Shown: positions 9,568 through 19,772 of the stretch, in pieces
Layout of the letters: each line of letters opens with the position of its first letter
Numbering within the stretch: the stretch's first letter is position 1
Virus record (IMG/VR): IMGVR_UViG_2617270955_000003
Length of the DNA: 20,009 nt
DNA from: a virus
Taxonomy: Duplodnaviria; Heunggongvirae; Uroviricota; Caudoviricetes
Strand: one strand, 5' to 3'
Notes under the pieces: generated by a model
Seen by the model: only the letters and a program-made list of their open reading frames with translations
The model's database searches: none
What the model was told of the DNA's origin: nothing
Made by a program: the position numbers and the translations under genes

Positions 9568-12500
9568 ATGGGCAAAGGAAGCAGTAAGGGGCATACCCCG
9601 CGCGAAGCGAAGGACAACCTGAAATCCACGCAATTACTGAGTGTGATCGATGCCATCAGCGAAGGGCCGATTGAAGGTCCGGTGGATGGATTAAAAAGCG
9701 TGCTGCTGAACAGTACACCGGTGCTGGACAGTGAGGGGAATACCAACATCTCCGGTGTTACGGTGGTGTTCCGGGCAGGTGAGCAGGAGCAGACACCGCC
9801 GGAGGGATTTGAATCCTCCGGTTCCGAGACGGTGCTGGGTACGGAAGTGAAATACGACACGCCGATCACCCGCACCATCACGTCGGCAAACATCGACCGT
9901 CTGCGCTTTACCTTCGGTGTGCAGGCACTGGTGGAAACCACCTCAAAGGGGGACAGGAATCCATCGGAAGTCCGCCTGCTGGTTCAGATACAACGTAACG
10001 GTGGCTGGGTGACGGAAAAAGACATCACCATTAAGGGTAAAACCACCTCACAGTATCTGGCCTCAGTGGTGGTGGATAACCTGCCGCCGCGCCCGTTTAA
10101 TATCCGGATGCGCAGGATGACGCCGGACAGCACCACAGACCAGCTGCAGAACAAAACGCTCTGGTCGTCATACACCGAAATCATCGATGTGAAACAGTGC
10201 TACCCGAACACGGCACTGGTCGGCGTACAGGTGGACTCGGAGCAGTTCGGCAGCCAGCAGGTGAGTCGTAATTATCATCTTCGCGGGCGCATTCTGCAGG
10301 TGCCGTCGAACTATAACCCGCAGACGCGGCAATACAGCGGTATCTGGGACGGAACGTTTAAGCCGGCATACAGCAACAACATGGCCTGGTGTCTGTGGGA
10401 TATGCTGACCCATCCGCGCTACGGCATGGGAAAACGTCTTGGTGCGGCAGATGTGGATAAATGGGCGCTGTATGTCATCGGCCAGTACTGCGACCAGTCG
10501 GTGCCGGACGGCTTTGGCGGCACGGAGCCGCGCATCACCTGTAATGCGTACCTGACCACACAGCGTAAGGCGTGGGATGTGCTCAGTGATTTCTGCTCGG
10601 CGATGCGCTGTATGCCGGTATGGAACGGGCAGACGCTGACGTTCGTGCAGGACCGGCCGTCGGATAATGTGTGGACCTATAACCGCAGTAATGTGGTGAT
10701 GCCGGATGATGGCGCGCCGTTCCGCTACAGTTTCAGCGCCCTGAAGGACCGCCATAATGCCGTTGAGGTGAACTGGACTGACCCGGATAACGGCTGGGAA
10801 ACGGCAACAGAGCTTGTGGAGGACACGCAGGCCATTGCCCGTTATGGTCGTAATGTCACGAAGATGGATGCCTTTGGCTGTACCAGCCGGGGGCAGGCAC
10901 ACCGCGCCGGGCTGTGGCTGATTAAAACGGAGCTGCTGGAAACGCAGACCGTGGACTTCAGCGTGGGCGCAGAAGGGCTTCGCCATGTACCGGGCGATGT
11001 TATTGAAATCTGCGATGATGACTATGCCGGTATCAGCACCGGTGGTCGTGTGCTGGCGGTGAGCAGCCAGACCCGGACGCTGACGCTCGACCGTGAAATC
11101 ACGCTGCCATCCTCCGGCACCACGCTGATAAGCCTGGTTGACGGAAGTGGCAATCCGGTCAGCGTGCAGGTCCAGTCCGTCACCGACGGCGTGAAGGTGA
11201 AAGTGAGCCGGGTTCCTGACGGCGTTGCAGAATACAGCGTGTGGGGGCTGAAGTTGCCGACGTTGCGCCAGCGCCTGTTCCGCTGTGTGAGTATCCGTGA
11301 GAACGACGACGGCACGTATGCCATCACCGCCGTGCAGCATGTACCGGAAAAAGAAGCCATCGTGGATAACGGGGCGCACTTTGACGGCGACCAGAGCGGC
11401 ACGGTGAATGGTGTCACGCCGCCAGCGGTGCAGCACCTGGCCGCAGAAGTCACTGCAGACAGCGGGGAATATCAGGTGCTGGCGCGATGGGACACACCGA
11501 AGGTGGTGAAGGGCGTGAGCTTCCTGCTCCGTCTGACCGTAACAGCGGACGACGGCAGTGAGCGGCTGGTCAGCACGGCCCGGACGACGGAAACCACATA
11601 CCGCTTCAGGCAACTGGCGCTGGGGCGTTACACGCTGACGGTCCGGGCGGTAAATGCGTGGGGGCAGCAGGGCGATCCGGCATCGGTATCGTTCCGGATT
11701 GCGGCACCGGCAGCGCCTGTCACTATTGAACTGATACCAGGGTATTTTCAGATAACAGCGGTCCCGAAACTGGCTGTATATGACCCGACGGTGCAGTTTG
11801 AGTTCTGGTTCTCGGAAAAGCGGATTATCGATATCAGGCAGGTTGAAACCAGCGCGCGTTATCTTGGTACGGCGCTGTACTGGATAGCCGCCAGTAGCAA
11901 TATTAAGCCGGGTTATGATTATTACTTTTATATCCGCAGCGTGAACACCGTTGGTAAATCGGCATTTGTGGAGGCCGTTGGTCGGGCGAGCGATGATGCG
12001 GAAGGTTATCTGAATTTTTATAAAGGGTTGATCAATAAAACGCATCTCGGCAAGGAACTGCTGGAAAACTTTGAGCTGACGGAAGATAACGCCAGCAAAC
12101 TGGAGGAGTTTTCGAAAGAGTGGAAGGACGCCAACGATAAATGGAATGCCATGTGGGGCGTCAAAATTGAGCAGACCAAAGACGGCAAACATTATGTCGC
12201 GGGGCTTGGCCTCAGCATGGAGGATACGGAGGAAGGCAAACTGAGCCAGTTCCTGGTTGCCGCTAACCGTATCGCGTTTATTGACCCGGCAAACGGGAAT
12301 GAAACGCCGATGTTTGTGGCGCAGGGCAACCAGATATTCATGAACGACGTGTTCCTGAAGCGCCTGACGGCCCCCACCATTACCAGCGGCGGTAATCCTC
12401 CGGCATTTTCCCTGACACCGGACGGGCGGCTGACGGCGAAAAATGCCGATATCAGCGGTAACGTGAATGCGAACTCCGGGACGCTCAACAACGTCACGAT

Positions 12501-12963
12501 TAACGAGAACTGCCGGGTTCTGGGAAAACTGTCCGCGAACCAGATTGAAGGCGATCTCGTTAAAACAGTGGGCAAAGCTTTCCCCCGTGACTCCCGGGCA
12601 CCGGAGCGGTGGCCATCAGGGACCATTACCGTCAGGGTTTATGACGATCAGCCGTTTGACCGGCAAATTGTTATTCCGGCTGTGGCATTCAGTGGCGCTA
12701 AGCATGAGAGAGAGCATACTGATATTTACTCCTCATGCCGTCTGATAGTGCGGAAAAACGGTGCTGAAATTTATAACCGTACCGCGCTGGATAATACGCT
12801 GATTTACAGTGGCGTTATTGATATGCCTGCCGGTCACGGTCACATGACGCTGGAGTTTTCGGTGTCAGCATGGCTGGTAAATGGCTGGTATCCCACAGCA
12901 AGTATCAGCGATTTGCTGGTTGTTGTGATGAAGAAAGCCACTGCAGGCATCACGATTAGCTGA
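9568..12963 (+). CDS. J: Central tail fibre / host specificity protein J, with divergent C-terminal receptor-binding region
   Basis: 1131 aa; GGAG RBS 8 nt upstream; N-terminal ~1000 aa match lambda gpJ as recalled, with fibronectin-III-like repeats; last ~145 aa are homologous to but clearly different from lambda. Confidence 0.95.
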
Positions 12964-13030: not shown

Positions 13031-13630
13031 ATGCGTAAATTATGTGCTGTTATTCTATCCGCAGTAGTCTGGCTGGTTGCCGCTGGTACGCCAGCGAGCG
13101 CAGCAGAGCATCAGTCCACACTAAGCGCCGGGTATCTTCAGACCCATACTGATATGCCAGGCAGTGATGACCTGAAGGGCATTAACGTGAAATACCGTTA
13201 TGAATTTACGGACACGCTGGGGCTGGTGACGTCATTCAGTTATGCCAATGCCAAAGATGAGCAAAAAACGCATTACAGCGATACCCGCTGGCATGAAGAT
13301 TCAGTGCGTAACCGCTGGTTCAGCATGATGGCGGGGCCATCTGTACGCGTGAATGAATGGTTCAGTGCTTATGCGATGGCAGGTGTGGCTTACAGCCGTG
13401 TTTCGACGTTCTCCGGGGATTATCTCCGCGTAACTGACAACAAGGGGAAAACGCACGATGTGCTGACCGGAAGTGATGACGATCGCCACAGCAACACGTC
13501 TCTGGCGTGGGGAGCTGGCGTGCAGTTTAACCCGACCGAATCCGTGGCCATTGATATTGCTTATGAAGGCTCCGGCAGTGGCGACTGGCGCACTGACGGT
13601 TTCATCGTGGGTGTCGGTTATAAGTTCTGA
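13031..13630 (+). CDS. lom: Lom outer membrane protein (Ail/OmpX/PagC family)
   Basis: 199 aa; signal peptide MRKLCAVILSAVVWLVAAGTPASA; beta-barrel OMP signature with C-terminal ...GFIVGVGYKF; GAGAGG RBS; same position as lambda lom. Confidence 0.95.
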   Translation: MRKLCAVILSAVVWLVAAGTPASAAEHQSTLSAGYLQTHTDMPGSDDLKGINVKYRYEFTDTLGLVTSFSYANAKDEQKTHYSDTRWHEDSVRNRWFSMMAGPSVRVNEWFSAYAMAGVAYSRVSTFSGDYLRVTDNKGKTHDVLTGSDDDRHSNTSLAWGAGVQFNPTESVAIDIAYEGSGSGDWRTDGFIVGVGYKF

Positions 13631-13686: not shown

Positions 13687-14397
13687 CACAGAAAACCCCC
13701 AGCTAGGCTGGGGGTTCCGGAAAGCTTTCAGCTTTAAGCCAGTTATTAAAACCCCTTTTGATTTGTTAAAACACCTTGCGGTCTGGCAACTGCAAGTGTC
13801 AAACAAGAAATCAAAAGGGGGTCCCAATGGGGAACGAAAAGAGCTTAGCGCACACCCGATGGAACTGTAAATATCACATAGTTTTTGCGCCAAAATACCG
13901 AAGACAGGTGTTCTACAGAGAGAAGCGTAGAGCAATAGGCAGTATTTTGAGAAAGCTGTGTGAGTGGAAAAGTGTACGGATTCTGGAAGCTGAATGCTGT
14001 GCAGATCATATCCATATGCTTGTGGAGATCCCGCCCAAAATGAGCGTATCCGGCTTTATGGGATATCTGAAAGGGAAAAGCAGTCTGATGCTTTACGAGC
14101 AGTTTGGTGATTTGAAATTCAAATACAGGAACAGGGAGTTCTGGTGCAGAGGGTACTACGTCGATACGGTGGGTAAGAACACGGCGAAGATACAGGATTA
14201 CATAAAGCACCAGCTTGAAGAGGATAAAATGGGAGAGCAGTTATCGATTCCCTATCCGGGCAGCCCGTTTACGGGCCGTAAGTAACGAAGTTGGATGCAA
14301 ATGTCAGATCGTGTGCGCCTGTTAGGGCGCGGCTGGTAAGAGAGCCTTATAGGCGCATTTGAAAAACCTCCGGCTATGCCGGAGGATATTTATTGTG
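13687..14397 (+). mobile_element. IS200-family insertion sequence (IS200/IS605 family), about 0.7 kb, boundaries approximate
   Basis: Contains an IS200-type TnpA gene; left end carries an 8-bp-stem hairpin (CCCCCAGC-TAG-GCTGGGGG, 13696..13714); element sits where lambda has only about 10 bp between the lom terminator and the stf start; length fits IS200 (about 707 bp). Confidence 0.7.
13827..14285 (+). CDS. tnpA: IS200-family transposase TnpA (HUH single-strand transposase)
   Basis: 152 aa from ATG 13827 (MGNEKSLAHTRWNCKYHIVFAPKYRR...); HUH motif in ...CADHIHMLVEIPP...; the track start at 13776 is an upstream in-frame extension. Confidence 0.9.
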   Translation: MGNEKSLAHTRWNCKYHIVFAPKYRRQVFYREKRRAIGSILRKLCEWKSVRILEAECCADHIHMLVEIPPKMSVSGFMGYLKGKSSLMLYEQFGDLKFKYRNREFWCRGYYVDTVGKNTAKIQDYIKHQLEEDKMGEQLSIPYPGSPFTGRK

Positions 14398-14405
14398 GAG
14401 TGGAT

Positions 14406-16784
14406 ATGGCAGCAGTAAAAATCTCAGGTGTGCTGAAAGATGGTGCGGGAAAACCAATACAGAACTGCACTATTCAACTGAAGGCAAAGCGTAACAGCAC
14501 CACGGTACTGGTGAACACGGTGGCTTCTGAAAATCCGGATGAAGCCGGACGTTACAGCATGGATGTTGAGCATGGTCAGTACAGCGTCACCCTGCTGGTT
14601 GAAGGTTTTCCGCCTTCACATGCCGGGACCATTACCGTCTATGAAGGTTCCAGACCAGGTACGCTGAATGATTTTCTCGGTGCCATGACGGAGGATGATG
14701 TCCGACCGGAGGCACTGCGCCGCTTTGAGCAGATGGTGGAAGAAGCGGCACGCAACGCTGAAGCCGCCTCTCAGAGCGCAGCGGCGGCAAAGAAATCCGA
14801 AACTGCAGCGGCATCATCGAAGAACGCGGCGAAAACCTCAGAAACGAATGCAGCTAACAGCGCACAGGCGGCAGCGACCTCAAAGACTGCATCGGCAAAC
14901 TCCGCGACAGCAGCCAAAAAATCAGAAACCAACGCGAAAAATAGCGAGACAGCCGCAAAGACGAGCGAAACCAACGCAAAGTCCAGCCAGACGGCAGCGA
15001 AAACCAGCGAAACGAATGCCAAAGCCAGTGAAACTGCGGCAAAAAACAGCCAGGTTGCAGCAGCCCAAAGCGAGAGCGCGGCAGCCGGTTCTGCGACTTC
15101 AGCAGCTGGATCAGCAACTGCTGCGGCTAACAGCCGGAAAGCTGCGAAGACGAGTGAAACTAACGCAAAGTCCAGCCAGACGGCAGCGAAGACCAGCGAA
15201 ACGAATGCCAAAGCCAGCGAAACTGCGGCGAAAAACAGTCAGGATGCAGCAGCCCAAAGCGAGAGTGCTGCAGCTGGTTCTGCAAGCGCGGCGGCTGCTT
15301 CTGCCACTGCATCAGCCAACAGTCAAAAAGCAGCAAAAACCAGTGAAACCAATGCAAAGACAAGCGAGACTGCAGCGGCGAACTCGGCGAAAGCATCCGC
15401 TGCAAGCCAGACCGCTGCAAAAGCAAGTGAAGACGCAGCCAGAGAGTATGCAAGCCAGGCAGCAGATCCGTATAAATATGTCTTACAGCCGCTGCCTGAT
15501 GTGTGGATACCGTTTAACGATTCACTGGATATGATTACGGGCTTTTCGCCATCATATAAAAAGATTGTTATTGGTGACGACGAAATAACGATGCCTGGCG
15601 ACAAGATTGTTAAGTTTAAACGTGCATCGAAAGCAACCTATATTAACAAATCTGGTGTGCTGACAGAGGCTGCCATTGATGAGCCACGATTTGAACGTGA
15701 TGGCCTGCTTATTGAGGGGCAAAGAACTAATCTTCTGCTTAATTCAACAAATCCATCTAAATGGAATAAGTCAGGCAATCTGGAACTCACAGAAATATCC
15801 ACGGATTCTTTTAATTTTACTTATGGGAGATTTACTGTAAAAGATACTCTTATTGGTCAGACAAGTGCTATTAATATCGTAACGATTTCTGGCAGTAAAG
15901 GGTTTGATGTCACAGGTGATGAAAAATATGTGACCATTTCATGCCGTGTAAGAAGTGATGTTGAAAATATAAGGTGTCGTTTAAGATTTGAACACCATGA
16001 TGGTTATACTTACACTTTTTTGGGAGATGCTTACCTCAATTTATCAACACTTGTAATTGATAAAACTGGTACTGCTGCAGACCGTATTATTGCAAAGGCT
16101 GTAAAAGATGAGGTTACTGGTTGGATTTTCTATCAGGCTACAATTAATGCACTAGATACAGAGAGCATGATTGGTGCGATGGTTCAATACGCTCCTGTAA
16201 AAGGTTCAGGTACAGCATCTGGAGACTATCTGGATATCGCAACTCCACAAGTGGAAGGTGGATCAAGTGCTTCGTCATTTATTGTAACTGATATAACTGC
16301 AAGCACTCGCGCAAGCGATATGGTGACAGTCCCAATCAAGAATAACCTTTATAATCTTCCTTTTACGGTTCTTTGTGAGGTACATAAGAACTGGTATAAA
16401 ACGCCAAATGCAGCACCGCGTGTTTTTGATACCGGCGGTCATCAAACCGGAGCGGCTATTATTCTTGGCTTCGGTCGTTCAACAGATTACGACGGATTTC
16501 CTTATTGTGATATAGGTTTGGCTAACAGACGGGTAAACGAAAACGCATCGCTTGAAAAAATGGTTATGGGGATGCGTGTAAAGTCAGATCAGTCTACGTG
16601 CTCAGTAAGTAACGGGCGTATATCCAGCGAAAAGAAAGCCACATGGTCCTATATTCAGAACTCCGCAATTATCCGTATTGGAGGCCAGACTACAGCCGGG
16701 TTGCGTCATTTATTTGGTCATGTCAGGAATTTCAGAATATGGCACAAGGCATTGACTGATGCTCAGATGGGGGAGTCAATCTAA
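14406..16784 (+). CDS. stf: Side tail fibre protein (lambda Stf-like N-terminus, repetitive Ala/Ser/Thr shaft, divergent AT-rich C-terminal domain)
   Basis: ATG 14406 gives MAAVKISGVLKDGAGKPIQNCTIQLKAKRNSTT..., matching the lambda Stf N-terminus as recalled; the track start at 14376 falls in the IS200 end region. Confidence 0.9.
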   Translation: MAAVKISGVLKDGAGKPIQNCTIQLKAKRNSTTVLVNTVASENPDEAGRYSMDVEHGQYSVTLLVEGFPPSHAGTITVYEGSRPGTLNDFLGAMTEDDVRPEALRRFEQMVEEAARNAEAASQSAAAAKKSETAAASSKNAAKTSETNAANSAQAAATSKTASANSATAAKKSETNAKNSETAAKTSETNAKSSQTAAKTSETNAKASETAAKNSQVAAAQSESAAAGSATSAAGSATAAANSRKAAKTSETNAKSSQTAAKTSETNAKASETAAKNSQDAAAQSESAAAGSASAAAASATASANSQKAAKTSETNAKTSETAAANSAKASAASQTAAKASEDAAREYASQAADPYKYVLQPLPDVWIPFNDSLDMITGFSPSYKKIVIGDDEITMPGDKIVKFKRASKATYINKSGVLTEAAIDEPRFERDGLLIEGQRTNLLLNSTNPSKWNKSGNLELTEISTDSFNFTYGRFTVKDTLIGQTSAINIVTISGSKGFDVTGDEKYVTISCRVRSDVENIRCRLRFEHHDGYTYTFLGDAYLNLSTLVIDKTGTAADRIIAKAVKDEVTGWIFYQATINALDTESMIGAMVQYAPVKGSGTASGDYLDIATPQVEGGSSASSFIVTDITASTRASDMVTVPIKNNLYNLPFTVLCEVHKNWYKTPNAAPRVFDTGGHQTGAAIILGFGRSTDYDGFPYCDIGLANRRVNENASLEKMVMGMRVKSDQSTCSVSNGRISSEKKATWSYIQNSAIIRIGGQTTAGLRHLFGHVRNFRIWHKALTDAQMGESI
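14953..15283 (+). repeat. Tandem in-frame duplication of about 189 bp (63 codons) in the stf shaft
   Basis: Segments 14953..15094 and 15142..15283 are near-identical at offset 189 bp (...GTCCAGCCAGACGGCAGCGAA.ACCAGCGAAACGAATGCCAAAGCCAG.GAAACTGCGGC...), encoding repeated AAKTSETNAKSSQTAAKTSETNAKASETAAKNSQ. Confidence 0.85.
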
Positions 16785-17065
16785 TGAAAGATTTAACACT
16801 CAAATTTGCAGACAGGGCCGACTTTTCGGCCTTTATGGATAGCATTGGCTATTATGATGACGAGTCGATGCAGGATGATATTCTTATTGACGTGATAGGT
16901 AACGTGTACAAAGAAACCGGAGAACTGACTGAAGATGGCGAACCGGTATGTGTTAAGGAAGATGGATATTATGTAAACGTGCGCATCATTAATGATGCAA
17001 AAAAATCGTCAATATTCGATGAATACGCGGTTGTAGTTGAACATCAACTTCGTGGCTGGATGTGA
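16784..17065 (+). CDS. Hypothetical small acidic protein (93 aa), translationally coupled to stf
   Basis: ATG overlaps the stf stop (TAATG); AT-rich like the stf 3' half; occupies the position where lambda has tfa but does not resemble Tfa. Confidence 0.55.
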   Translation: MKDLTLKFADRADFSAFMDSIGYYDDESMQDDILIDVIGNVYKETGELTEDGEPVCVKEDGYYVNVRIINDAKKSSIFDEYAVVVEHQLRGWM

Positions 17066-17074
17066 GGGAGACAA

Positions 17075-17779
17075 ATGGCTACATCGACAGTAATTCCAGG
17101 AGACATCACCACGTTAAAGGGAGATGTCAGTAAAGCCAAGGAAGATATTTCCTCAATTAACGGAAAAGTATCAACGCTTCAGGCTGATATGACCAGTGCA
17201 AAGCAGGATATCAGCACCAGATACACAAAAACTGAAGTTGATAATAAGCTGAAAAACAAACTGGAAGTGAACGCTCTGGAAAGCGGTCGTTATGGTGGAG
17301 ATTTTTACCCGTTGACTGGCCGTGAAGCGTTTTATTTGTGGGGATTGGGCACGACTACAGCGGCGGCAAACCTTTATCTTAATCCTGACCCCGCAATTTC
17401 GTCTGTGCTGCGGTCAACATCGTCTATCCGCTATAAACATTCAGTAGAGACAATAGATTCAGAGCACGCCGATCTCATTTTCAGGATGCGCCCTGTGTGG
17501 TACAGGTCACAATGCGAAAATGACAGGCGTGACTGGGGATTCTACGGATTGATTGCCGAGGAAGTAGGAGAAATTGCCCCTCAGTTTGTACACTGGCGAC
17601 CAGCTAACGAAGATGATGCACCGGAAGCTATTTCCAGCAATGGCCTTGTTGCCGAAGGTGTAATGTACGAACGTCTGGTTGTTCCACTGATTCACCATAT
17701 CCAGAAGCTGACTGAAAGAGTTGATGAACTTGAGTCAGAATTAAAGTTGTTATCCGTTTCCCGAAGCGATATCGGATAA
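17075..17779 (+). CDS. Tail-fibre-like protein with C-terminal intramolecular-chaperone (peptidase S74-like) domain
   Basis: 234 aa; GGGAG RBS; N-terminal periodic coiled-coil-like segment; C-terminal ...SSIRYKHSVETIDSEHADLIFRMRPVWY...WGFYGLIAEEVGEIAPQFV...NGLVAEGVMYERLVVPLIHHIQKLTERVDELESELK resembles the autoproteolytic chaperone domains of phage fibres and tailspikes. Confidence 0.65.
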   Translation: MATSTVIPGDITTLKGDVSKAKEDISSINGKVSTLQADMTSAKQDISTRYTKTEVDNKLKNKLEVNALESGRYGGDFYPLTGREAFYLWGLGTTTAAANLYLNPDPAISSVLRSTSSIRYKHSVETIDSEHADLIFRMRPVWYRSQCENDRRDWGFYGLIAEEVGEIAPQFVHWRPANEDDAPEAISSNGLVAEGVMYERLVVPLIHHIQKLTERVDELESELKLLSVSRSDIG

Positions 17780-17789
17780 AGGAGGAGTA

Positions 17790-18077
17790 ATGGATATAAG
17801 CCCCTTACTTCATGCACTTTGTGCTGTGGCTGCGCAAACACTGGTTGGTCTTTTTACCGGAAACTGGGCTTACGGAGCGATAGCCGGTTGTACGTTCTTC
17901 ATTGCGCGTGAACACACCCAGGCAGAATATCGCTGGATCGAAATGTTCGGGCATGGCAAGCGAATGAATATGCCGTGGTGGGGCGGTTTTGATCCGCGCG
18001 CGTGGGATGTGACAAGCCTGATGGATTTTGCTGTGCCGGTGGTGGCGTGTCTGCTGATCTGGATGTTGATCCGTTAA
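17790..18077 (+). CDS. Hypothetical small membrane protein (95 aa, 2-3 predicted TM segments)
   Basis: Strong RBS AAGGAGGAG 7 nt upstream; hydrophobic N-terminal and C-terminal segments; last gene before attP. Confidence 0.6.
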   Translation: MDISPLLHALCAVAAQTLVGLFTGNWAYGAIAGCTFFIAREHTQAEYRWIEMFGHGKRMNMPWWGGFDPRAWDVTSLMDFAVPVVACLLIWMLIR

Positions 18078-18395: not shown

Positions 18396-18429
18396 TTTTT
18401 AACTCTTTGATTTTTCTACTCTGTATCAT

Positions 18430-18491
18430 CGGTCTCGAAAACCGGAGTGGGGGCAACTCCACCGGGGGTTCAAATCCCCCTCTCTCCGCCA
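18430..18491 (+). tRNA. Partial tRNA-Ser(CGA) (serU-like) 3' segment, anticodon stem to CCA; probable att core
   Basis: Anticodon loop CTCGAAA (anticodon CGA), long variable arm, T-arm GGGGG-TTCAAAT-CCCCC, acceptor 3' strand TCTCTCC, discriminator G and CCA at 18489..18491; no matching 5' acceptor/D-arm upstream, so not a complete gene. Confidence 0.75.
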
Positions 18492-18536: not shown

Positions 18537-18572
18537 CTTGGAATTACTTGGAATATTTTCTTGGAATATTTT
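18537..18572 (+). promoter_or_regulatory. Candidate integrase arm-type binding sites (P' arm): three direct CTTGGAAT(T/A) repeats
   Basis: CTTGGAATTA (18537..18546), CTTGGAATATTTT (18547..18559), CTTGGAATATTTT (18560..18572); they overlap the last about 10 codons of int. Confidence 0.55.
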
Positions 18573-19569
18573 CAGGTAACGGGACATCAAGTGTTGGTGA
18601 AACTTTAACCTTCCTGTCATAGATTAGCACTTGCCCTTCGGTTTTGTGACCAGAGAAAAGTTGCTTATCCCGGCTGCTTCCTTCATAGTCTGAAATTCCT
18701 TTCGCCTTCAGATCATGAAAGGTGAAGTCGGTTAAAATACCTGAAATTTTTCCAGCACGATTTCTTGCATCTACCCACATTTCGTTAAAGCCTTTGTACA
18801 TATATCGGTTGCCGTATTGATTGCTGATCACATAGGCAGATTTTGGTAACTGTTTTGCTTTTTCGATCGCTGCCTGTAATCGTGGACTCCATGCTTTTAT
18901 CTGTTTTTTTCCGGTTTTCCCTTGCTGGATGAATATCCCGTCGTTTCCAATCTGTTCCCATTTCAGCGATAACACATCGGAAACCCTCGCTGCACACAGA
19001 TAGGCAATTTCCATTGCGATAAAAACAGGAAGAGGTGCAACGCTTAATACTGCCTGGTATTCTTTGTCGGTTACATATCGTTCGCGGTTTTTGGCCTTGA
19101 ATTTACTTACACCTGCACATGGGTTAGCCTTCACGTACCCTCGCTCATACCCCCAACTGTAAACACGGGACATACTGCTTTTTTCATGGTTGGCTTGCGT
19201 TTTACTCTGCTCCCCTCTTTTGTCCATGTATCGACGGATGTGTTCTGGTTTTATGGAATCCGCTGGTACCTTACCGAATACGGCAAGCAACTTTTTTTGA
19301 TGTTGCAGATAATCTTTTTGTGTTCTTGGACTAAGGTCACTGTAATAGGCGCTGGCGAGGAATTTTTCCCACAAGCGACCGAATGTCATTGCACGATCGC
19401 GATTATTTACAGTTTCCTCATACTTTTTCCATAAAGCAGCTAAACCATCCTTGATGGCGGTTAGTGTGACAGATTCTCTGGATGTTGGTTTCCATACATA
19501 ACTATATTTATTTGGGTATACATTTGGAGGTAATTTTTCGTGTTCAGGATTTTTCCTTCGTCTTCCCAT
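18544..19569 (-). CDS. int: Tyrosine integrase (lambda Int family)
   Basis: 341 aa; lambda-like arm-binding N-terminus MGRRRKNPEHEKLPPNVY; catalytic-region signatures ...HDLKAKG... and ...GHKTEGQVLIYDRK (candidate Tyr); adjacent to attP; start overlaps the xis-like stop (TGATG). Confidence 0.95.
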   Translation of the reverse strand: MGRRRKNPEHEKLPPNVYPNKYSYVWKPTSRESVTLTAIKDGLAALWKKYEETVNNRDRAMTFGRLWEKFLASAYYSDLSPRTQKDYLQHQKKLLAVFGKVPADSIKPEHIRRYMDKRGEQSKTQANHEKSSMSRVYSWGYERGYVKANPCAGVSKFKAKNRERYVTDKEYQAVLSVAPLPVFIAMEIAYLCAARVSDVLSLKWEQIGNDGIFIQQGKTGKKQIKAWSPRLQAAIEKAKQLPKSAYVISNQYGNRYMYKGFNEMWVDARNRAGKISGILTDFTFHDLKAKGISDYEGSSRDKQLFSGHKTEGQVLIYDRKVKVSPTLDVPLPENIPRKYSK

Positions 19570-19772
19570 CAGATCGCACCAAAATTCGGCTCTACCTCGC
19601 GTGGTGGTAAAGTTTTATTGCAGGTAAATAGATCCCGGCTGACAATCGGTTTGCCACTACGATTGGTATAGAACGGAAGCCCGTTTTCTATTAACCATTT
19701 TCGCTGGTGGCTTGCATATTTGCAGCCCGTTAATATTAGCAATTCATCTTCGGTTAAAAATAAGCTGCTCAT
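19569..19772 (-). CDS. Excisionase-like protein (DUF4224-like small DNA-binding protein)
   Basis: 67 aa, MSSLFLTEDELLILTGCKY...WLIENGLPF...; immediately upstream of and coupled to int, the usual xis position. Confidence 0.7.
   Translation of the reverse strand: MSSLFLTEDELLILTGCKYASHQRKWLIENGLPFYTNRSGKPIVSRDLFTCNKTLPPREVEPNFGAI

Follow-up and report, generated by a model that had tools for sequence, protein, structure and literature searches.

The analysed window, a stretch of 20,009 nucleotides from a tailed virus (Caudoviricetes; IMG/VR record IMGVR_UViG_2617270955_000003), contains a tail-fibre cassette whose third gene, the short fibre gene, is the subject of this work (Table 1). The cassette genes follow in the order stf, a 93-aa ORF, the short fibre gene and a 95-aa membrane ORF, and the same order was found in lambdoid, T1-like and 9g-like phages. 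The initial annotation of the window had placed a standalone 234-aa protein at 17075-17779, and an ORF with an ATG start was present at exactly these positions.

Table 1. Features of the fibre cassette (nucleotide positions in the window)
Feature	Position	Strand	Description or basis
Side tail fibre Stf, 802 aa	14376..16784	+	phage_tail_N, repeat shaft, ~430-aa globular C-domain without S74
93-aa acidic ORF (phrog_1361), constant cassette partner	16784..17065	+	candidate connector or assembly factor
Translation-initiation region, GAGGGAG Shine-Dalgarno	17057..17074	+	after the TGA of the 93-aa ORF; read from sequence
Short fibre gene	17075..17779	+	ATG start, 234 aa, 26.1 kDa precursor; ORF listing
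Conserved ~24-aa N-terminal anchor (MATSTVIPGDITTLKGDVSKAKED), putative docking peptide	17075..17146	+	allele comparison, PHROG, anchor search
Heptad coiled-coil stalk, residues ~5-48, overlapping the anchor	17087..17218	+	heptad count, AF2, gp26 likeness
Mature-fibre tip, residues ~69-115	17279..17419	+	homolog conservation, phmmer boundaries
Predicted autocleavage site Thr115|Ser116 with Lys121 (T-SSIRYK)	17417..17437	+	conservation; T5 pb1 geometry
Intramolecular chaperone (Peptidase_S74), residues 116-234, predicted 13.8 kDa release	17420..17776	+	Pfam, PDB sequence match, Foldseek
95-aa predicted membrane ORF (phrog_1443), usually the last cassette gene	17790..18077	+	locus survey

The Shine-Dalgarno sequence lies 6-12 nt 5' of the ATG at 17075, and the nearest in-frame stop upstream of this ATG, the TGA at 17063, is the end of the preceding 93-aa ORF. 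The encoded protein is 100% identical to WP_000235978.1 of EC958, a "tail fiber domain-containing protein". The gene was present in 746 of 5,426 complete E. coli genomes, in 740 of them at a coverage of at least 80%, and versions of ~225-235 aa were found in dozens of virulent Drexlerviridae. The comparison with the IdasGreatGrand ortholog gave dN/dS = 0.26, with both halves of the gene constrained. The ORF matches PHROG families of tail fibres, and in one of them, which spans 1,385 positions, it aligns over its entire length to the final ~240. The gene is an intact and widespread prophage gene and an ordinary part of its cassette.

Stf was assigned by Pfam PF08400 (E = 2.6e-67), NCBIfam GTA_spike_fiber over residues 445-646, and a match to the RcGTA head spike fibre (PDB 6tb9, E = 2.8e-4). 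Its C-domain was encoded directly 5' of the 93-aa gene in 82 of 85 loci, and the next gene was an anchor-bearing S74 fibre in every locus with a visible downstream region. The set of Stf C-domain, 93-aa protein and anchor-bearing S74 fibre was observed in lambdoid, Drexlerviridae and Nonagvirus phages. A second fibre gene that stands beside the main lateral fibre gene and is kept with it as a unit is the arrangement of branched fibres, and it was found in three phage lineages. Within the three-gene fibre cassette common to several coliphage families, the short fibre is a regular component that can be swapped.

The short fibre gene had been described as lying downstream of a separate stf gene. 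Stf is indeed upstream, but not directly, as the conserved 93-aa ORF, whose start overlaps the stf stop (ATGA), stands between the two. The 93-aa protein was 90-100% identical across lambdoid loci, whichever fibre allele followed; the identity was 84-91% in other lambdoid and Nonagvirus loci and 46-52% in Drexlerviridae. It had no match in Pfam or NCBIfam, nor in PDB by a profile search, and its AF2 model, with a mean pLDDT of 52.5, was unusable. Neither this ORF nor the 234-aa protein showed homology to tail fibre assembly proteins of the Tfa/gp38/Mu-U type in Pfam, PHROGs or NCBIfam. The 95-aa ORF was found downstream in 49 of the 53 loci in which the region was visible, and also in many lambda-like phages that carry other fibre alleles. 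No tRNA was detected by ARAGORN downstream of the cassette; the tRNA-like sequence there is a partial 3' copy, an att site, outside the feature.

The N-terminal half of the 234-aa protein consists of three parts. The first ~24 residues, the anchor, are nearly identical in the 343/351-aa alleles, which are otherwise 28-29% identical, and the DNA homology between the alleles fades just past codon ~20. The anchor aligns to the start of phrog_4563 and phrog_19752 (32-33 positions), and it opens fibre genes in lambdoid, Drexlerviridae and Queuovirinae phages. Such a short conserved N-terminus with a variable distal part is typical of the second subunit of a branched fibre. We also searched for a likeness to the docking peptides of LtfB and phiEco32 gp15, and tblastn with residues 1-47 gave no T5-like or phiEco32 matches; the matches to Bacillus SPO1-like phages covered coiled-coil repeats only. 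Residues 5-48, which overlap the anchor, form a clean heptad stretch, with 12 of 12 a/d positions hydrophobic (6% elsewhere). The AF2 monomer contains a helix at residues 12-47 (pLDDT 73-82), and the stalk is weakly similar to the coiled coil of the P22 gp26 needle. The initial annotation had taken the whole N-terminal half as coiled-coil-like, which holds for residues 5-48 but not for residues ~69-115, a non-helical tip segment. This tip comprises ~47 non-coiled residues per chain, among which no receptor-binding domain is recognisable. Its final ~25 residues (TTTAAANL...VLRST) belong to a conserved tip and chaperone module; N99 is invariant across 35 homologs, T94 and R113 are nearly so, and phmmer matches to other fibres start at query residue ~85-93. 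Residues 65-116 had no resolved structure in the AF2 monomer (pLDDT <50), as expected for an intertwined trimer.

The C-terminal part of the protein belongs to the Peptidase_S74 family. The Pfam profile PF13884 matched residues 116-172 over its positions 1-57 of 58 (E = 4.4e-6), and the 27.3 bits exceed the curated gathering cutoff of 22 bits for this family (MEROPS S74). The closest solved sequence was that of DT57C LtfA (8hqz_d), with E = 5.5e-7, or 1.5e-7 with a profile. With the AF2 monomer as query, Foldseek returned the MyRF ICA (7dc3; E = 1.5e-4, probability 1.00), followed by 3gud and 3gw6, and all significant structural matches were intramolecular chaperones; TM-scores were low (0.2-0.4), as a monomer model was compared with extended trimer chains. 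The model has pLDDT 65-87 over residues 120-232 and a long C-terminal helix (residues 202-232); in the characteristic fold of the family, a mixed alpha/beta region is joined to a long helix of this kind, which builds a trimeric coiled coil. An exhaustive phmmer search gave 3,633 representative clusters at E ≤ 1e-3, of which 1,606 reached E ≤ 1e-10, and thus the domain relationship is far beyond chance; among the best 150 relatives, the match nearly always runs to the C-terminus of the protein. Likewise, the domain occupies the extreme C-terminus here (residues 116-234 of 234), after a segment that includes the heptad coiled coil and is probably trimeric.

The signature motifs quoted in the initial annotation were all located, SSIRYK at residues 116-121, GLIAEEVGEIAPQFV at 158-172 and MYERLVVPLIHHIQKL at 197-212. 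The Ser/Lys dyad that it had suspected near SSIRYK corresponds to Ser116 and Lys121, which do not vary among 35 homologs with identities down to ~30% or among 75 alleles of the same slot, and the segment T115|S116-S-I-R-Y-K121 has the S-x4-K spacing of the S74 family. The same Thr-Ser...Lys(+5) layout is found in T5 pb1, with Thr1263-Ser1264 and Lys1269 (PMC4690869). Self-cleavage at this site is predicted to convert the 26.1 kDa precursor into fragments of 12.4 and 13.8 kDa. Sequence profile, predicted structure and catalytic residues agree with the earlier assignment, in that the C-terminal ~120 residues of this standalone short protein are an intramolecular chaperone of the tailspike and fibre type, predicted to be autoproteolytic.

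The slot downstream of the 93-aa gene is occupied by two main alleles, of ~234 and ~346 aa, and the occupant started with MAT(S/V)T-IP-DI in all 80 surveyed loci with a visible downstream region. The 343-351-aa allele (phrog_4563; the "tail fiber protein" of HannyBb and the "endosialidase chaperone" of ESCO3) agrees with the 234-aa allele in its cassette position, in its first ~24 residues and in an S74 chaperone that has both Ser and Lys of the dyad. It differs in being 28-29% identical overall, in keeping the canonical SDRDLK where the window allele reads S-S-I-R-Y-K, and in an additional ~110-aa globular domain that replaces most of the coiled coil. Slot occupants that appeared to lack S74 were all truncations of the 346-aa allele, by a contig end or a premature stop. 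The alleles assort independently of the Stf C-domain, whose identity ranges from 40 to 100% among loci that share a short-fibre allele; the 93-aa protein remains constant throughout. Moreover, the unit of coiled coil, tip and chaperone (residues ~25-234) is 52-59% identical to the C-terminus of fibres of 539-1,243 aa, some of them Stf proteins with phage_tail_N.

We propose that the gene encodes a short, self-chaperoned secondary subunit of the lateral tail fibre, which probably branches from the lateral fibre as LtfB does in DT57C. Among the three options raised initially, this is the "miniature second fibre". A structural fibre is favoured over an accessory chaperone by the clean heptad stalk, by the occurrence of the same unit at the C-terminus of long fibres, and by the tail-fibre PHROG families. 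In the proposed mechanism, three 26 kDa precursor chains would associate via the six-heptad N-terminal coiled coil, and the C-terminal S74 chaperone would serve in cis as the template on which residues ~69-115 fold into a small, intertwined tip. In a correctly folded trimer, Lys121 would activate Ser116 to cut the Thr115-Ser116 bond, which would free the 13.8 kDa chaperone and leave a stubby fibre of 3 × 12.4 kDa. The conserved first ~24 residues may then attach the fibre to the virion, with the Stf lateral fibre as the most probable site and/or the invariant 93-aa partner as the link. As a result, the lateral fibre would be branched and would carry the globular C-domain of Stf and the short-fibre tip as two different distal modules, each exchangeable by recombination and the tip a putative receptor-binding element. 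The very small size of the mature part is a point against this proposal. In the literature on Drexlerviridae lateral fibre chaperones, lambdoid intramolecular chaperones, mass spectrometry of endosialidase chaperones and temperate phages of the ECOR collection, we found no study of this protein; the SH6 paper deals with a fused 559-aa fibre, and the Hf4s preprint has no bearing on it.

The docking partner is the point at which a neighbouring explanation departs from ours, as an independent short fibre with the same cis chaperone, self-cleavage and tip could be attached not on Stf but elsewhere, to the tail tip, J or the collar. In favour of such an attachment, the cassette works in three tail backgrounds, and the variability of the Stf C-domain behind the same allele implies that a docking site on Stf, if there is one, lies outside the variable part. 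Nevertheless, the tail-tip proteins are unrelated among the three lineages, but the anchor is always accompanied by the Stf C-domain family and the 93-aa protein (82 of 85 loci), and this constant company makes a docking site within the cassette more parsimonious. Given also the precedent of LtfB on LtfA, which favours branching, we regard attachment elsewhere as unlikely. We see still less reason to expect the second option of the initial annotation, that the protein is itself no fibre but a trans-acting chaperone or transient cap for the Stf C-terminal domain, with a role in its folding, trimerisation or masking. Stf has no S74 domain and no recognisable Tfa, the 234-aa protein has a very small mature part, and homologs are annotated as "putative lateral tail fiber chaperone". 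Fibre caps formed transiently by chaperones have been described in Alteromonas phages, according to a citation in PMC11990801. However, these annotations appear to derive from the Pfam domain name only, and the characterised S74 chaperones act in cis on the segment directly N-terminal to them, with cleavage dependent on the trimeric fold of that segment (PMC4690869). The independent assortment of alleles with 28% identical tips and chaperones relative to the Stf C-domain type is the opposite of chaperone-client co-evolution, and thus argues against a dedicated chaperone of Stf. The extra globular domain of the 346-aa allele, the presence of the tip and chaperone unit as the cis terminus of other Stf proteins, and the combination of N-terminal anchor and heptad stalk, both structural-fibre features, also disfavour it.

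The third option had been a remnant of a swapped fibre module, that is, the non-functional 3' end of a formerly longer fibre gene left after module exchange or a frameshift. The alignment of the entire ORF to the last positions of a long PHROG family and the close relationship of residues ~25-234 to the C-termini of long fibres suggest that the gene was probably born by fission or recombination of such a fibre. As a description of the present gene, this explanation is effectively refuted. The gene has its own Shine-Dalgarno sequence and ATG, it is full-length and intact in ~740 E. coli genomes and spread over three phage lineages, its dN/dS indicates purifying selection, and its catalytic residues are invariant. 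Virulent Drexlerviridae, which do not retain dead genes, carry it in dozens, and the upstream ORF is a conserved non-fibre gene, with no out-of-frame fibre segment. A frameshifted fragment of a longer fibre gene is ruled out on the same grounds.

We return to the short second lateral fibre as the favoured explanation. If it is right, about one in seven sequenced E. coli strains would have prophages bearing two independently exchangeable host-recognition modules per lateral fibre, which would be relevant to predicting the host range of temperate phages in ExPEC lineages such as ST131. The anchor and the 93-aa partner might then offer a ready-made scaffold to engineer receptor-binding modules across three siphovirus families, and the small size of the 234-aa protein would be convenient for model studies of chaperone-driven trimer folding and self-cleavage. 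The labels "chaperone of endosialidase" and "lateral tail fiber chaperone" are misleading and can be corrected, as they give the name of a domain and not the role of the protein. Conceptually there is nothing new here, since branched fibres and cis-acting S74 chaperones are already well established. More tentatively, the 93-aa protein and the ~24-residue peptide might form a portable, lineage-independent dock for trimeric tip and chaperone modules on lambdoid, T1-like and 9g-like lateral fibres. We do not expect this possibility to hold, but with it the 234-aa allele would represent the minimal cargo in nature, and at ~47 tip residues per chain no S74 chaperone would have a smaller natural substrate. 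In the radical variant of this idea, the short protein would be a trans chaperone or cap for the Stf globular domain, and so the first trans-acting S74 domain.

The closest parallel is the LtfA/LtfB pair of DT57C and DT571/2 (Golomidova 2016, PMC4728585; Ayala 2023, PMC10713586; PDB 8hqz), where, as here, a second fibre gene lies beside that of the main lateral fibre. LtfB is an S74-bearing second fibre that docks on LtfA by a short conserved N-terminus (PMC4728585, PMC10713586), a role inferred for that N-terminus and proposed here for the anchor, although the two docking peptides are unrelated. LtfA and LtfB both carry a C-terminal pfam13884 autocleavable chaperone and are much larger (LtfA has 1,076 aa in PDB 8hqz). 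Unlike LtfA, Stf as the main fibre lacks an S74 domain, and the 93-aa ORF separates the two genes. The hosts of the present cassette are lambdoid, T1-like and 9g-like siphoviruses, whereas the LtfA/LtfB phages are T5-like. The BASEL papers likewise describe lateral fibres made up of at least two proteins, as well as proximal fibres to which distal ones with a T5-like tip and IMC are attached.

T5 pb1 (PDB 4UW7/4UW8; PMC4690869) shares the Thr-Ser scissile bond, the Lys at +5 and the C-terminal coiled-coil helix in the chaperone, whose release unmasks the receptor-binding tip (PMC4690869). In pb1, a bullet-shaped receptor-binding domain of ~290 aa precedes the chaperone at the end of a 1,396-aa fibre, whereas here the coiled coil and the cleavage site are only ~47 residues apart. 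The endosialidase (K1F/endoNF), GA-1 gp12 (PDB 3gw6, 3gud) and MyRF ICA (7dc3) domains belong to the same family by Pfam and fold search and have the Ser/Lys dyad, but are fused to large enzymatic tailspikes, a neck appendage and a eukaryotic transcription factor, respectively. Compared with the canonical S-D-x-R-x-K, the window allele has Asp replaced by Ser (S-S-I-R-Y-K). Lambdoid Stf proteins that end in a fused S74 (such as P0064 and P0066; phage_tail_N + Phage_fiber_2 + Peptidase_S74) come from the same type of prophage and the same host and are 57-59% identical over query residues 34/49-234, which span the stalk end, tip and chaperone. In these proteins the unit ends a single polypeptide of 735-958 aa, whereas the unit of the window is encoded separately and bears an N-terminal anchor of its own; the Stf upstream of it terminates in another globular domain.

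The 234-aa ORF lay exactly where the initial annotation had placed it, starting with an ATG. A Shine-Dalgarno sequence, GAGGGAG, was located 6-12 nt 5′ of this codon, and the nearest upstream in-frame stop was the TGA at 17063 that ends the preceding 93-aa ORF. The chaperone motifs quoted in that annotation were found in the protein, with SSIRYK at residues 116-121, GLIAEEVGEIAPQFV at 158-172 and MYERLVVPLIHHIQKL at 197-212. Residues 116-172 aligned to positions 1-57 of the 58 in the Pfam Peptidase_S74 (S74, PF13884) profile (E = 4.4e-6), and the score of 27.3 bits exceeded the curated cutoff of 22 bits. Among PDB sequences, the closest was the chaperone of DT57C LtfA (8hqz), with E = 5.5e-7 for the single sequence and 1.5e-7 for a 35-sequence profile; the MyRF ICA domain was a weaker match. 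In the AlphaFold2 monomer (mean pLDDT 65), the N-terminal helix (residues 12-47) was predicted with confidence and the C-terminal domain (120-232, pLDDT 65-87), which ends in a long helix (202-232), with moderate confidence; residues 65-116 were unresolved. In a Foldseek search of the PDB, this model significantly matched only intramolecular chaperones: MyRF ICA (7dc3) ranked first (E = 1.5e-4, probability 1.00), followed by those of GA-1 (3gud) and endosialidase (3gw6), with low TM-scores because a monomer model was set against extended trimer chains. The tailspike-type chaperone domain at the C-terminus is therefore confirmed. The ~110 aa before it had been described as coiled-coil-like, which held for residues ~5-48 (12 of 12 heptad a/d positions hydrophobic, vs 6% elsewhere) but not for residues ~69-115, a separate, non-helical segment.

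The anticipated Ser/Lys dyad was present at SSIRYK. Ser116 and Lys121 were invariant in an alignment of 35 homologs, down to ~30% identity, as were 18 further positions, nearly all within the chaperone domain; Arg113 and Ser117 were nearly invariant. Among 75 intact proteins from other phages encoded in the same slot (the gene position after the 93-aa ORF), the motif read SSIRYK in 46, SDRDLK in 27, and SSSRYK and SSERYK in one each, so S-x4-K was always kept. The Thr115-Ser116...Lys121 layout is the same as Thr1263-Ser1264...Lys1269 in the T5 fibre pb1, in which Ser1264 is the nucleophile for Thr1263-Ser1264 cleavage and Lys1269 activates it (PMC4690869). In pb1 the cut can be made only once the trimer has folded correctly, and the receptor-binding surface is uncovered when the chaperone is released (PMC4690869). 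The predicted products here, by computed mass, are a 12.4 kDa mature subunit (1-115) and a 13.8 kDa released chaperone (116-234).

The window is the right arm of a lambdoid prophage. The 234-aa gene lies downstream of a separate side tail fibre gene (stf), as had been noticed, but with the 93-aa ORF between them.

Features of the lambdoid right arm, in gene order
Feature	Position	Strand	Remarks
Tape-measure-sized ORF			First in gene order, before J
J	9568-12963	+	
674-aa ORF	10168-12192	-	Antisense, wholly within J; probably a non-coding shadow ORF
lom	13031-13630		
IS200C-family transposase (tnpA)	13776-14285	+	Between lom and stf; insertion also in EC958
stf	14376-16784	+	
Stf shaft	14740-15450	+	Residues ~120-360
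Stf C-domain	15483-16781	+	Residues ~370-802
93-aa acidic ORF (phrog_1361)	16784-17065	+	Start overlaps stf stop (ATGA)
234-aa gene (candidate short fibre)	17075-17779	+	ATG start
95-aa membrane ORF (phrog_1443)	17790-18077	+	Predicted transmembrane segments; 3′ of 234-aa gene
Partial tRNA-Ser	18429-18491	+	3′ two-thirds, anticodon stem to CCA; 50 bp from integrase gene
int, lambda-type integrase	18544-19569	-	
DUF4224 excisionase-like ORF	19569-19772	-	

In Stf, phage_tail_N is followed by a long repeat shaft rich in Ala, Ser and Thr and by a C-terminal domain of ~430 aa. The latter matched NCBIfam GTA_spike_fiber and the head-spike fibre of the Rhodobacter gene transfer agent RcGTA (6tb9, E = 2.8e-4), and ended in a LamG-like tail, '...FRIWHKALTDAQMGESI'. 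Pfam, NCBIfam and PDB searches gave no S74 domain in this Stf. The long, near-perfect Ala/Ser/Thr/Glu/Asn/Lys repeat of the shaft (…SETNAK.SETAAK…) yields several long spurious ORFs on both strands.

A lateral fibre with the Stf-type C-domain, followed by an ORF of ~92-93 aa and next by an S74 protein, was also found in the lambdoid phages IdasGreatGrand, PhiR49_1 and HannyBb, the Drexlerviridae KarlJaspers and SECphi27, and the Nonagvirus ESCO3. We surveyed 86 loci, consisting of 80 IMG/VR contigs plus annotated phages. In 82 of the 85 loci with this region visible, the Stf C-domain was directly 5′ of the 93-aa gene. The domain was itself highly variable (40-100% identity; 44% between the window and KarlJaspers, ~75% with ESCO3 over the C-domain), suggesting a second exchangeable recognition module. 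The 93-aa protein was the most conserved cassette element, 90-100% identical across all lambdoid loci; identity was 46-52% in Drexlerviridae and 84-91% in the other phages named. It had no match in Pfam, NCBIfam or PDB and its AF2 model was unusable; it is the best candidate for a putative connector or assembly factor. The 93-aa and 234-aa ORFs share a reading frame, a TGA plus 9 nt apart (17063-17077), as they do in IdasGreatGrand, HannyBb, ESCO3 and SECphi27, and not in KarlJaspers. TGA read-through fusing the two proteins is hypothetical, and chance together with close relatedness could explain the shared frame. The 95-aa ORF followed in 49 of 53 loci of the survey; many lambda-like phages that have other alleles of the fibre carry it too, at ~96% nucleotide identity. 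Its dN/dS was 0.41, and a role in lysogenic conversion or exclusion is possible.

Downstream, the window continues with the att-like partial tRNA and the integrase. ARAGORN found no complete tRNA in the window, so the tRNA-Ser fragment, presumably serU-like with anticodon CGA, is an att core. The identical fibre cassette of EC958 ends beside zinT instead, and the contiguous junction from 95-aa ORF to integrase occurred in only 6 of 5,426 genomes. The window may thus represent either a phage-form arrangement or a prophage junction of tandem or recombinant origin.

With the 234-aa protein as query, phmmer was run exhaustively against 1.84 billion representatives and gave 3,633 clusters at E ≤ 1e-3. 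For almost all of the 150 best of these, the alignment covered query residues ~85-230 and ended at the C-terminus of proteins of 180-1,284 aa. Short S74-bearing proteins were common among the relatives, and several close ones, sharing 52-59% identity with query residues ~25-234, were fibres 539-1,243 aa long. P0064 (735 aa) and P0066 (958 aa) combined phage_tail_N, Phage_fiber_2 and Peptidase_S74; judged by this architecture, they are lambdoid Stf proteins with the stalk-end/tip/chaperone unit as their own C-terminus. Since the unit also forms the C-terminus of long fibres, the whole 234-aa ORF aligned to positions 1147-1384 of phrog_3299 (1,385 positions). The unit thus occurs in a fused form, at the end of one Stf polypeptide, and in a split form, encoded separately with a putative docking peptide.

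Recombination from such a long fibre is the probable origin of the split gene, although the gene is now maintained as such. Its interpretation as a remnant of a swapped fibre module was rejected, given its own Shine-Dalgarno sequence, its presence in 746 of 5,426 complete E. coli genomes (740 at ≥80% coverage), and a dN/dS against the IdasGreatGrand ortholog of 0.26 (0.31 for residues 1-115, 0.19 for 116-234). Moreover, full-length homologs (~225-235 aa, 57-61% identity) occur in dozens of virulent Drexlerviridae, including KarlJaspers, PeterMerian, SECphi27, tunus and tonn. Database entries for them include 'chaperone of endosialidase', 'putative lateral tail fiber chaperone' and 'tail fiber protein', wording that was apparently taken over from the name of the Pfam domain and not based on experiments. 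The gene was 100% identical in the ST131 strains EC958 and JJ1886, and in S88 and APEC O1, where PGAP names the product 'tail fiber domain-containing protein'.

In every surveyed locus with the downstream region visible, the ORF after the 93-aa gene began MAT(S/V)T-IP-DI(T/K). The dominant alleles were ~234 aa (~44 loci) and ~346 aa (~27 loci), the latter with an extra ~110-aa domain, and both carried the S74 module; the few apparent exceptions were contig-end or premature-stop truncations of the 346-aa type. The two classes were 28-29% identical overall, yet almost exactly alike over the first ~24 residues (the anchor), and their DNA homology faded just past codon ~20. The anchor peptide starts fibre genes of lambdoid, Drexlerviridae and Queuovirinae (JenP1, JenP2, ESCO3) phages; the search gave no T5-like or phiEco32 match. 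Such a pattern, in which the N-terminus stays constant and the distal part can be exchanged, typically marks a docking region in modular receptor-binding proteins. The BASEL papers also noted it for the lateral fibres of small siphoviruses.

If the S74 protein were instead a trans-acting chaperone dedicated to the Stf C-domain, as the initial annotation had also considered, its sequence should track that domain. It did not: the Stf C-domain was 40-100% identical to the window's in loci with the 234-aa allele (median 52%) and up to 98.6% identical in loci with the divergent 346-aa allele (median 76%). Characterised S74 chaperones act in cis, and the extra domain of the 346-aa allele would be needless for a chaperone; together, these points make a trans-acting role unlikely. 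The non-tracking alleles and the constant 93-aa protein indicate that the Stf C-domain and the distal part of the short fibre are independently exchangeable modules that flank a constant element formed by the 93-aa protein and the anchor.

The anchor, cassette conservation and module assortment favour the remaining option, a miniature second fibre, and we consider the 234-aa protein to be probably a short self-cleaving fibre on a branched lateral fibre. Three precursor chains would join via a six-heptad coiled coil, with the C-terminal chaperone templating an intertwined tip (residues ~69-115). After correct trimer formation, Ser116/Lys121 would cut the Thr115-Ser116 bond, and the departing chaperone would expose a small tip on a stubby 3 × 12.4 kDa fibre. 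The N-terminal ~24 residues may dock it onto the lateral fibre and/or the 93-aa protein, resulting in a branched lateral fibre with two distal modules; we give a small chance to attachment of the short fibre at another site on the tail. The analysis shows the identity of the domain and its motif, an intact gene under selection, the conservation of both cassette and anchor, and how the modules assort; trimer formation, self-cleavage, a place in the virion, the partner for docking and binding to a receptor are inferred.

This functional reading corrects a misleading annotation and recognises a three-lineage fibre cassette with a putative constant connector and two swappable modules. Being very small, the 234-aa protein is also a candidate model for studying how a chaperone drives trimer folding. 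Lateral fibres that branch or have several subunits are established, as are S74 chaperones acting in cis; the literature searched yielded no study of this protein, of its 93-aa partner or of the docking peptide common to these phages. Among characterised systems, the T5-like phage DT57C comes closest: its LtfA and LtfB both carry pfam13884 chaperones. There, LtfB is attached through LtfA via a short conserved N-terminus, as judged from genetics and the lack of LtfB density on the tail core rather than from a resolved LtfA-LtfB interface (PMC4728585, PMC10713586).
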